Below are positions 7,026 to 7,647 of a stretch of 64,000 nt of DNA, piece after piece (positions within the stretch are counted from its first letter, which is position 1; each line of letters begins with the position of its first letter). Made by a program: the position numbers and the translations under genes. This DNA comes from Escherichia coli (GTDB lineage: Bacteria; Pseudomonadota; Gammaproteobacteria; Enterobacterales; Enterobacteriaceae): NCBI RefSeq assembly GCF_044324875.1, contig NZ_CP172185.1, one strand, 5' to 3'. The notes under the pieces are model-generated. The model saw only the letters and a list, made by a program, of their open reading frames with translations, was not told the origin of the DNA and did no database searches.

Positions 7026-7533
7026 AGTTAATCACTTCACTGTGGAAAATGAGGAAATATTATTTTTTTTGCGCTTCGTAATTAATGGTTATAAGGTCGG
7101 CCAGAAACCTTTCTAATGCAAGCGATGACGTTTTTTTATGTGTCTGAATTTGCACTCTGTCACAATTCCAAATCTTTATTAATGACTCACCTAAAACGAC
7201 GCTGATACAGCGTGAATGCTGGGTTGTACGGTATTTCCCTTATGTTCATCAGATTCATTTAAGCAAGGGTTTCTTCTTCATTCCTGATGAAAGTGCTATC
7301 TAAAAAGATGATCTTAATAAATCTATTAAGAATGAGATGGAGCACACTGGATATTTTACTTATGAAACTGTTTCACTCCTTTACTTAATTTATAGAGTTA
7401 CCTTCCGCTTTTTGAAAATACGCAACGGCCATTTTTTGCACTTAGATACAGATTTTCTGCGCTGTATGGCATTGATTTGCTGCTAATCCTGTGGTTTGCA
7501 CTAGCTTTAAGTGGTCGAGATCACATTTCCTTG

Positions 7534-7578
7534 CTCATCCCCGCAACTCCTCCCTGCCTAATCCCCCGCAGGATGAGG
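7534..7578 (+). promoter_or_regulatory. candidate MalT boxes in the malPQ promoter
   Basis: GGATGAGG at 7571-7578 and inverted ctcatcccc at 7534-7542, resembling the MalT box consensus, about 70-110 bp upstream of malP ATG. Confidence 0.45.
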
Positions 7579-7647
7579 AAGGTCAACATCGAGCCTGGCA
7601 AACTAGCGATAACGTTGTGTTGAAAATCTAAGAAAAGTGGAACTCCT

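Follow-up and report, generated by a model that had tools for sequence, protein, structure and literature searches.

Organisation of the malT-malP interval

The interval described here lies at positions 7026-7647 of the window, by which we mean the whole 64-kb stretch of Escherichia coli DNA that was analysed. It separates two divergent genes. On the minus strand is malT (4320-7025), which encodes the 901-aa activator of the maltose regulon. On the plus strand is malP (7648-10041), which encodes maltodextrin phosphorylase and is followed on the same strand by malQ (10051-12132), encoding 4-alpha-glucanotransferase. These coordinates come from the list of open reading frames, and the gene names follow the RefSeq annotation of strain PCN033 and, for malT, also that of K-12. 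A genome search found 7026-7647 in PCN033 with 100% identity, and RefSeq annotates malT, malP and malQ around the same interval in K-12 too. The sequence-only reading had described a divergent malT-malP gap of about 620 bp. The ORF coordinates give 622 bp, and the gene identities hold by RefSeq annotation on identical sequence.

The interval is the already known malT-malPQ (malA) control region, in an ordinary form. This region has been a model of positive control since the 1980s. Its malP side, the malPQ promoter region, stands directly upstream of a maltose-regulon operon that begins with malP at 7648 and continues with malQ at 10051. Of 5,426 complete E. coli genomes, 5,423 contain the region, nearly always as a single copy. 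Compared with K-12, the interval carries 9 substitutions and one 11-bp indel, with the motif cores untouched, and its length is 622 bp against 611 bp.

In terms of composition, the malT-proximal half has 65% A+T, the malP half 57% and the entire 64-kb window 47%, in agreement with the earlier description of the malT-proximal half as AT-rich. That reading did not include the middle MalT box (7546-7555), the second CRP-like site (7507-7528) or the textbook status of the region.

Conservation across enterobacterial genomes

From a species-representative scan we aligned 42 enterobacterial genomes with malP adjoining malT, including the window and K-12, and an identity profile of the 36 non-Escherichia genomes was taken against the window. 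The sequence, the coordinates, the statistics, the conservation of the elements and the identity with the K-12 region are all results of the present analysis.

High-identity non-coding blocks lie at the two ends of the gap. On the malT side they cover the leader (7026-7050), the operator and the -10 element (7056-7109), the -35 element (7113-7122) and the CRP site (7138-7170). On the malP side they cover 7506-7525, the MalT boxes (7530-7585) and the -10 element with the start (7590-7616). No other conserved block of comparable length was found in the gap.

The malT promoter and its leader

The malT promoter has been characterized in the literature, which is our source for the position of CRP, for the -10 element and for control by Mlc, H-NS and StpA. 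The -10 element is given as GACCTT, with an alternative, TATAAC, at -7 to -2 (PMC8497467; bioRxiv 10.1101/2023.10.26.564124). CRP is centred at -70.5, and the -35 element has 3 matches out of 6 (bioRxiv 10.1101/2023.10.26.564124).

In the window, GACCTT (2 of 6 matches) is found on the minus strand at 7093-7098 and is present in 36 of the 42 genomes. The alternative TATAAC reads 7093-7088 on the same strand. With TATAAC at -7 to -2, the malT transcription start is placed at 7086 (minus strand). Upstream, at 7116-7121, we read the minus-strand hexamer TTGCAT as the -35 element, with the published count of 3 matches out of 6 and a 17-bp spacer to the -10. The alignment has either TTGCAA or TTGCAT at this point in 42/42 genomes.

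Next, the CRP-cAMP site of malT, AATTGTGACAGAGTGCAAATTC, occupies 7146-7167 and is read on the minus strand. Its centre, 7156.5, corresponds to -70.5, the position given in the literature. The published -10, the alternative -10 and the CRP position all map consistently onto the start at 7086 and the 22-mer at 7146-7167. The sequence-only reading had suggested a TGTGA-containing sequence as the CRP site of malT; the only TGTGA in the malT half is at 7160-7164 on the minus strand, inside this 22-mer. With TGTGA intact, 14 of the 22 positions of the site agree with the CRP consensus, which puts it among the best 11 of the 64-kb window, and it is one of the 24 CRP core matches found there.

The promoter has the layout of class I, with a 22-bp CRP site near one of the positions -61.5, -71.5, -81.5 and -91.5 and a weak sigma-70 core. 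CRP-cAMP bound at -70.5 (7146-7167) would activate this weak promoter in class I mode.

As for repression, a putative Mlc operator, the minus-strand stretch ATTAATTACGAAGCGCAAAAAAAAT, lies at 7061-7086 and overlaps malT +1 to +26. The stretch is near-invariant across the 36 non-Escherichia genomes. Operators of the Mlc/NagC type have A/T-rich arms flanking a central spacer that contains CG. The Mlc operator at malT is said to cover +1 to +23, as reportedly found by Decker et al. in 1998. Mlc would repress malT through this start-overlapping operator, at about 7061-7086.

The 5' leader of malT runs for 61 nt between the transcription start (7086) and the ATG (7026-7086, minus strand), and holds an A/U-rich stretch. 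The sequence CACAGTGAAGTGA at 7030-7044, directly 5' of the malT AUG, is kept in almost all genera. Despite this conservation, it resembles a Shine-Dalgarno sequence poorly. In 20 genomes the leader showed no conserved RNA structure (alifold energy of -0.03 kcal/mol, zero compensatory pairs), and Rfam gave no credible match to it. Activation of malT by CRP and its repression by Mlc have both been described, and its translation is reportedly stimulated by H-NS and StpA (PMC3161199). The ribosome-binding region of the leader would be a poor one, with H-NS and StpA reportedly aiding translation.

Two species outside the alignment, Trabulsiella guamensis and T. odontotermitis, keep the malT promoter, the Mlc operator and the CRP site, and malP is not the divergent neighbour there. 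Unrelated AT-rich sequence stands where the malP side would be expected.

MalT boxes and the malPQ promoter

The MalT box is an asymmetric decamer, 5'-GGGGA(T/G)GAGG, with the core GGA(T/G)GA. The earlier reading had pointed to a MalT-like motif and an inverted copy of it a short distance upstream of malP. Both are present. The first, GGATGAGG, occupies 7571-7578 and precedes the malP ATG by 70-77 bp. The inverted one, CTCATCCCC on the plus strand and GGGGATGAG on the minus strand, lies at 7534-7542, 106-114 bp upstream.

Taken as full decamers, we count three boxes. Box 3, GGGGATGAGC, is at 7533-7542 on the minus strand, with 1 mismatch, and is the distal member of a direct repeat. Box 2, AGGGAGGAGT, is at 7546-7555, also on the minus strand, with 2 mismatches. 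Boxes 3 and 2 form this same-strand direct repeat, with centres 13 bp apart and a 3-bp spacer. Box 1, CAGGATGAGG, is at 7569-7578 on the plus strand, with 2 mismatches, and sits 23 bp beyond box 2, facing the opposite way. A direct repeat of MalT sites with 3-bp spacing appears in the title of the 1991 paper by Vidal-Ingigliardi et al.

The -10 hexamer of malP was located by conservation, at 7599-7604 on the plus strand. It is CAAACT in 16 genomes and CACACT in 25, together 41 of 42, and it is the sole conserved downstream hexamer whose second base is A and whose sixth is T. The distance from the centre of box 1 (7573.5) to this hexamer is 25.5 bp. Further downstream, A7611 and A7612 are about 90% conserved. 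We infer A7611 as the probable start of malP transcription, with a 37-nt leader. A start at A7611 would place the box centres at -37.5 (box 1), -60.5 (box 2) and -73.5 (box 3), which we take to be the classical MalT positions of malPp. Both the start and this numbering derive from the geometry together with classical work. The supplements of Cappable-seq and SMRT-Cappable-seq studies contain no malT or malP entries.

The core GGA[TG]GA is retained in 40/42 genomes for box 3, in 42/42 for box 2 and in 41/42 for box 1. The substitutions in the core of box 1 are only T/G swaps, and across the three cores nearly all changes are T/G swaps at the degenerate position of the consensus. Between box 3 and the malP -10 there are zero indels in 41 of the 42 genomes. 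Real protein sites that depend on spacing would be expected to keep their cores at fixed distances in this way, which supports reading the boxes as such sites.

The genome of Intestinirhabdus alba has a 61-bp insertion that splits the malP -10 hexamer, at a point homologous to about 7602-7603 of the window. The insertion has 13-bp terminal inverted repeats, TGTCCCTTAACCG...CGGTTAAGGGACA.

The arrangement suggests how malPQ would be controlled. The promoter would have no -35 hexamer, the proximal MalT box taking that place. Active MalT, with ATP and maltotriose, would bind the three decamers, namely the direct repeat at -73.5/-60.5 and the inverted box at -37.5. MalT would then recruit RNA polymerase to the CAAACT -10 (7599-7604), and transcription would begin at about 7611.

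Motif frequency and chance

Short motifs such as these will also occur by accident. We scanned the 64-kb window with GGGGAKGAGG, allowing up to 2 mismatches, and compared the result with shuffled sequence. Single decamer matches number 69, against 73 expected from the shuffles. CRP core matches are equally unremarkable, with 24 observed and 24.5 expected. A lone decamer match therefore carries no meaning, since such matches are at chance level.

These counts are what favours the view that motifs resembling MalT and CRP sites arose by chance in G-rich or AT-rich DNA and have no regulatory role. The clustering speaks against it. Four non-overlapping decamer matches, at 7533, 7546, 7557 and 7569, fall inside 46 bp, and four such matches within 50 bp were seen in 0/500 dinucleotide shuffles of the window. 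The architecture, in which two boxes on one strand 13 bp apart are followed after 20-40 bp by a box on the other strand, also occurred in 0/500 shuffles. Moreover, the motifs fall on the only non-coding blocks with strong conservation, 40-42 of the 42 genomes retain the MalT cores at fixed spacing, and published data on the malT promoter fit the positions seen here. We consider the probability that chance explains these motifs to be practically nil. As a positive control, the same decamer gave 8 matches in the malE-malK control region of K-12, against 0.83 expected.

The reading of the decamers as MalT boxes is supported by their clustering, by the malKp-like geometry, by their conservation in 42 genomes and by the probable -37.5 geometry of the proximal box. 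The claim of the sequence-only reading that the motifs are consistent with MalT activation of malPQ is upheld, and such activation appears likely from the arrangement of the motifs. That reading would fail if the motif positions clashed with the malP transcription start; judged by geometry and conservation, they agree with a start at A7611.

A scan with sigma-70 promoter and terminator consensus sequences was discarded as a promoter finder. Its counts equalled those of the shuffles and it missed both the malT and the malP promoter, because both are activator-dependent.

A second CRP-like site and a conserved element between the boxes

Two conserved features are left unexplained by the classical model, one at 7507-7528 and the other at 7558-7565.

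The first is a second CRP-like site, AAATGTGATCTCGACCACTTAA, read on the minus strand at 7507-7528. Centred at 7517.5, or -93.5 from the inferred start of malP, it agrees with the CRP consensus at 17 of 22 positions. This makes it the single best match of the 64-kb window (the malT site has 14/22), and it is also a core match in the CRP scan. The pattern AGTGG...GATCACA is conserved across most genera, about as well as the MalT boxes.

This site suggests that CRP might directly co-activate malPQ together with MalT from 7507-7528, either by contacting the alpha subunit of polymerase or by bending the DNA. At malE/malK, CRP helps MalT assembly by DNA bending. In favour of direct co-activation are the quality of the consensus match, the cross-genus conservation and the position, as the site stands 19-20 bp from box 3 wherever it is present. 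This distance is 20 bp, and 19 bp in the Klebsiella and Kosakonia groups, so that the distance to the promoter shifts by 1 bp there, which counts against the idea. So does the loss of the site in Siccibacter and in Intestinirhabdus, where the sequence is degenerate in Intestinirhabdus alba. Furthermore, malPp was reportedly CRP-independent in classical work. From deletion and in vitro experiments, Raibaud, Chapon and co-workers reportedly concluded that malPp needs only MalT and that sequence upstream of about -80 is dispensable. The catabolite effect seen at malPQ is put down to malT. On balance, we regard direct co-activation by CRP as possible but lean against it.

A full-text literature search with the sequences of both CRP sites returned zero matches, and a literature search for a CRP site at malPp gave nothing usable. 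Databases presumably list a CRP site near 7507-7528 already.

The second feature is CTAATCCC at 7558-7565, between MalT boxes 2 and 1, at about -53 to -46. It is near-invariant in the 42 genomes. In the window it forms the decamer-like GGGGATTAGG, with 1 mismatch. The core GGA[TG]GA is found at this element in 0/42 genomes, which suggests that it is not as a canonical MalT box that CTAATCCC has been conserved.

The central spacer

Between the two promoter regions lies an AT-rich spacer of about 335 bp (7171-7505, 64% A+T). Its sequence identity in the 36 non-Escherichia genomes is near background. Most genera retain a spacer length of roughly 300-400 bp, and the total intergenic length is 570-690 bp, with about 455-460 bp in Dryocola and Cedecea. 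Three short islands rise above background, at about 7209-7226, 7352-7376 and 7398-7415. The consensus of the first is GCGTG..CTGG.TTG and that of the second TATT..GAAAC..TTTC. In many genera the distance between this second island, 7352-7376, and the malT CRP site is 185-189 bp.

Two palindromes were seen in the spacer. The first is a perfect 13-bp palindrome, TGAAACTGTTTCA, at 7363-7375. E. albertii keeps GAAAC-G-GTTTC, and in the Enterobacter group TGAAAC-NN-GTTTCA stands at another place in the spacer. We compared the spacer palindromes TGAAAC-N1-2-GTTTCA with the consensus sequences of Cra, LacI-family regulators, Fur, IHF, OmpR and sigma-54 and found no convincing fit to any of them. The second palindrome, ACGCTG-ATA-CAGCGT at 7199-7213, is terminator-like on the minus strand, a kind of match that occurs at chance level. 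The stem of this hairpin is kept in Escherichia species, with A, C or G as the varying loop base.

The spacer also differs in length within the genus. The 11 bp at 7223-7233, GTTGTACGGTA, are an indel polymorphism of E. coli: the window, PCN033 and sister Escherichia species have these bases, and K-12, O157 and most listed strains lack them. Since the sister species share these bases, the short form is a derived deletion. In Escherichia sp. MOD1-EC7003, a dispersed repeat of about 120 bp replaces the part of the spacer homologous to about 7195-7330 of the window. This repeat has a median of 11 copies per E. coli genome, and we take it to be ERIC/IRU from its appearance.

The retained length, the three islands, the 13-bp palindrome and the terminator-like hairpin could together point to an unannotated small-protein gene, a small RNA or a further promoter within 7171-7505. 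Several results argue against this. An Rfam scan of 6500-8200 at a permissive threshold gave just a chance snoRNA match (E = 0.54), and neither K-12 nor PCN033 has any feature annotated in the spacer. Promoter-like and terminator-like matches are at shuffle expectation, and identity outside Escherichia is near background, as given above. The spacer also tolerates the 11-bp indel within E. coli and the ERIC-like insertion in a sister species. The sole sizeable ORF, of 49 aa at 7337-7486, was rejected as a small protein, being interrupted in E. albertii. Minus-strand mini-ORFs in Enterobacter (MKCxFxxN*) were also rejected, having no counterpart in Escherichia. A hidden gene or promoter in the spacer is thus very unlikely in our view.

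Comparison with known control regions

The closest relative is the malA region of K-12, with the same locus and flanking genes. Every motif core is identical in sequence and spacing. The shared elements are the CRP site at -70.5, the -35 and -10 of malT, the Mlc operator, the three MalT boxes and the malP -10. The differences are at strain level, with one substitution in the non-contacted centre of each CRP site. These are at 7157, in the central spacer of the malT site, which is variable between genera, and at 7516, in the site at 7507-7528.

Next, the malE-malK control region uses the same decamer. It too has a direct repeat in a 13-bp register with an inverted box about 23-24 bp further on, and no -35 hexamer. 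In K-12 the malKp boxes are at 275 (minus strand), 288 (minus strand) and 312 (plus strand), a layout as at malPp. With a putative malKp -10 of CATAGT, the distance from the box in the inferred -37.5 register would equal the 25.5 bp of malPp. This -10 and the box register are a reading of the sequence in the light of the classical model.

The two systems differ in how their promoters are coupled. At malE/malK both divergent promoters depend on MalT, whereas here malPp alone would do so and malTp is a plain CRP class I promoter. A single nucleoprotein complex serves malEp and malKp; several CRP sites lie in the stretch between these promoters, and their MalT sites occur in two registers offset by 3 bp. 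Unlike at malE/malK, about 525 bp separate the starts of malTp and malPp, and the spacer in between is not conserved.

Finally, CRP class I promoters such as lac (as classified in bioRxiv 10.1101/2023.10.26.564124) likewise combine a weak sigma-70 promoter with a single upstream CRP site that faces the right side of the helix. Compared with that class, malTp has CRP at -70.5, not at the commoner -61.5, and a putative Mlc operator overlaps its start.

Interpretation

We conclude that 7026-7647 is very probably the malA control region with two independent promoters placed back to back and a long AT-rich spacer between them, where CRP and Mlc act at malT and MalT acts at malPQ.

The classical picture of two promoters may nevertheless be incomplete, as suggested by the conserved site at 7507-7528, the near-invariant CTAATCCC and the spacer with its length and three islands. 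What is missing could be direct co-activation of malPQ by CRP, a further factor bound in the spacer, or an undescribed architectural constraint between the promoters. We hold such incompleteness to be distinctly unlikely.

Beyond annotation, the importance of these results is small. A reading from motifs alone recovered the malA region correctly. The gain is modest and comes from the phylogenetic footprint across 42 enterobacterial genomes, which confirms each classical element base by base. The same footprint flags conserved pieces that the classical model does not use, namely the second CRP-like site, CTAATCCC, the spacer islands and the spacer length. These leftovers are small additions to the malA control region, rather than a new type of system.
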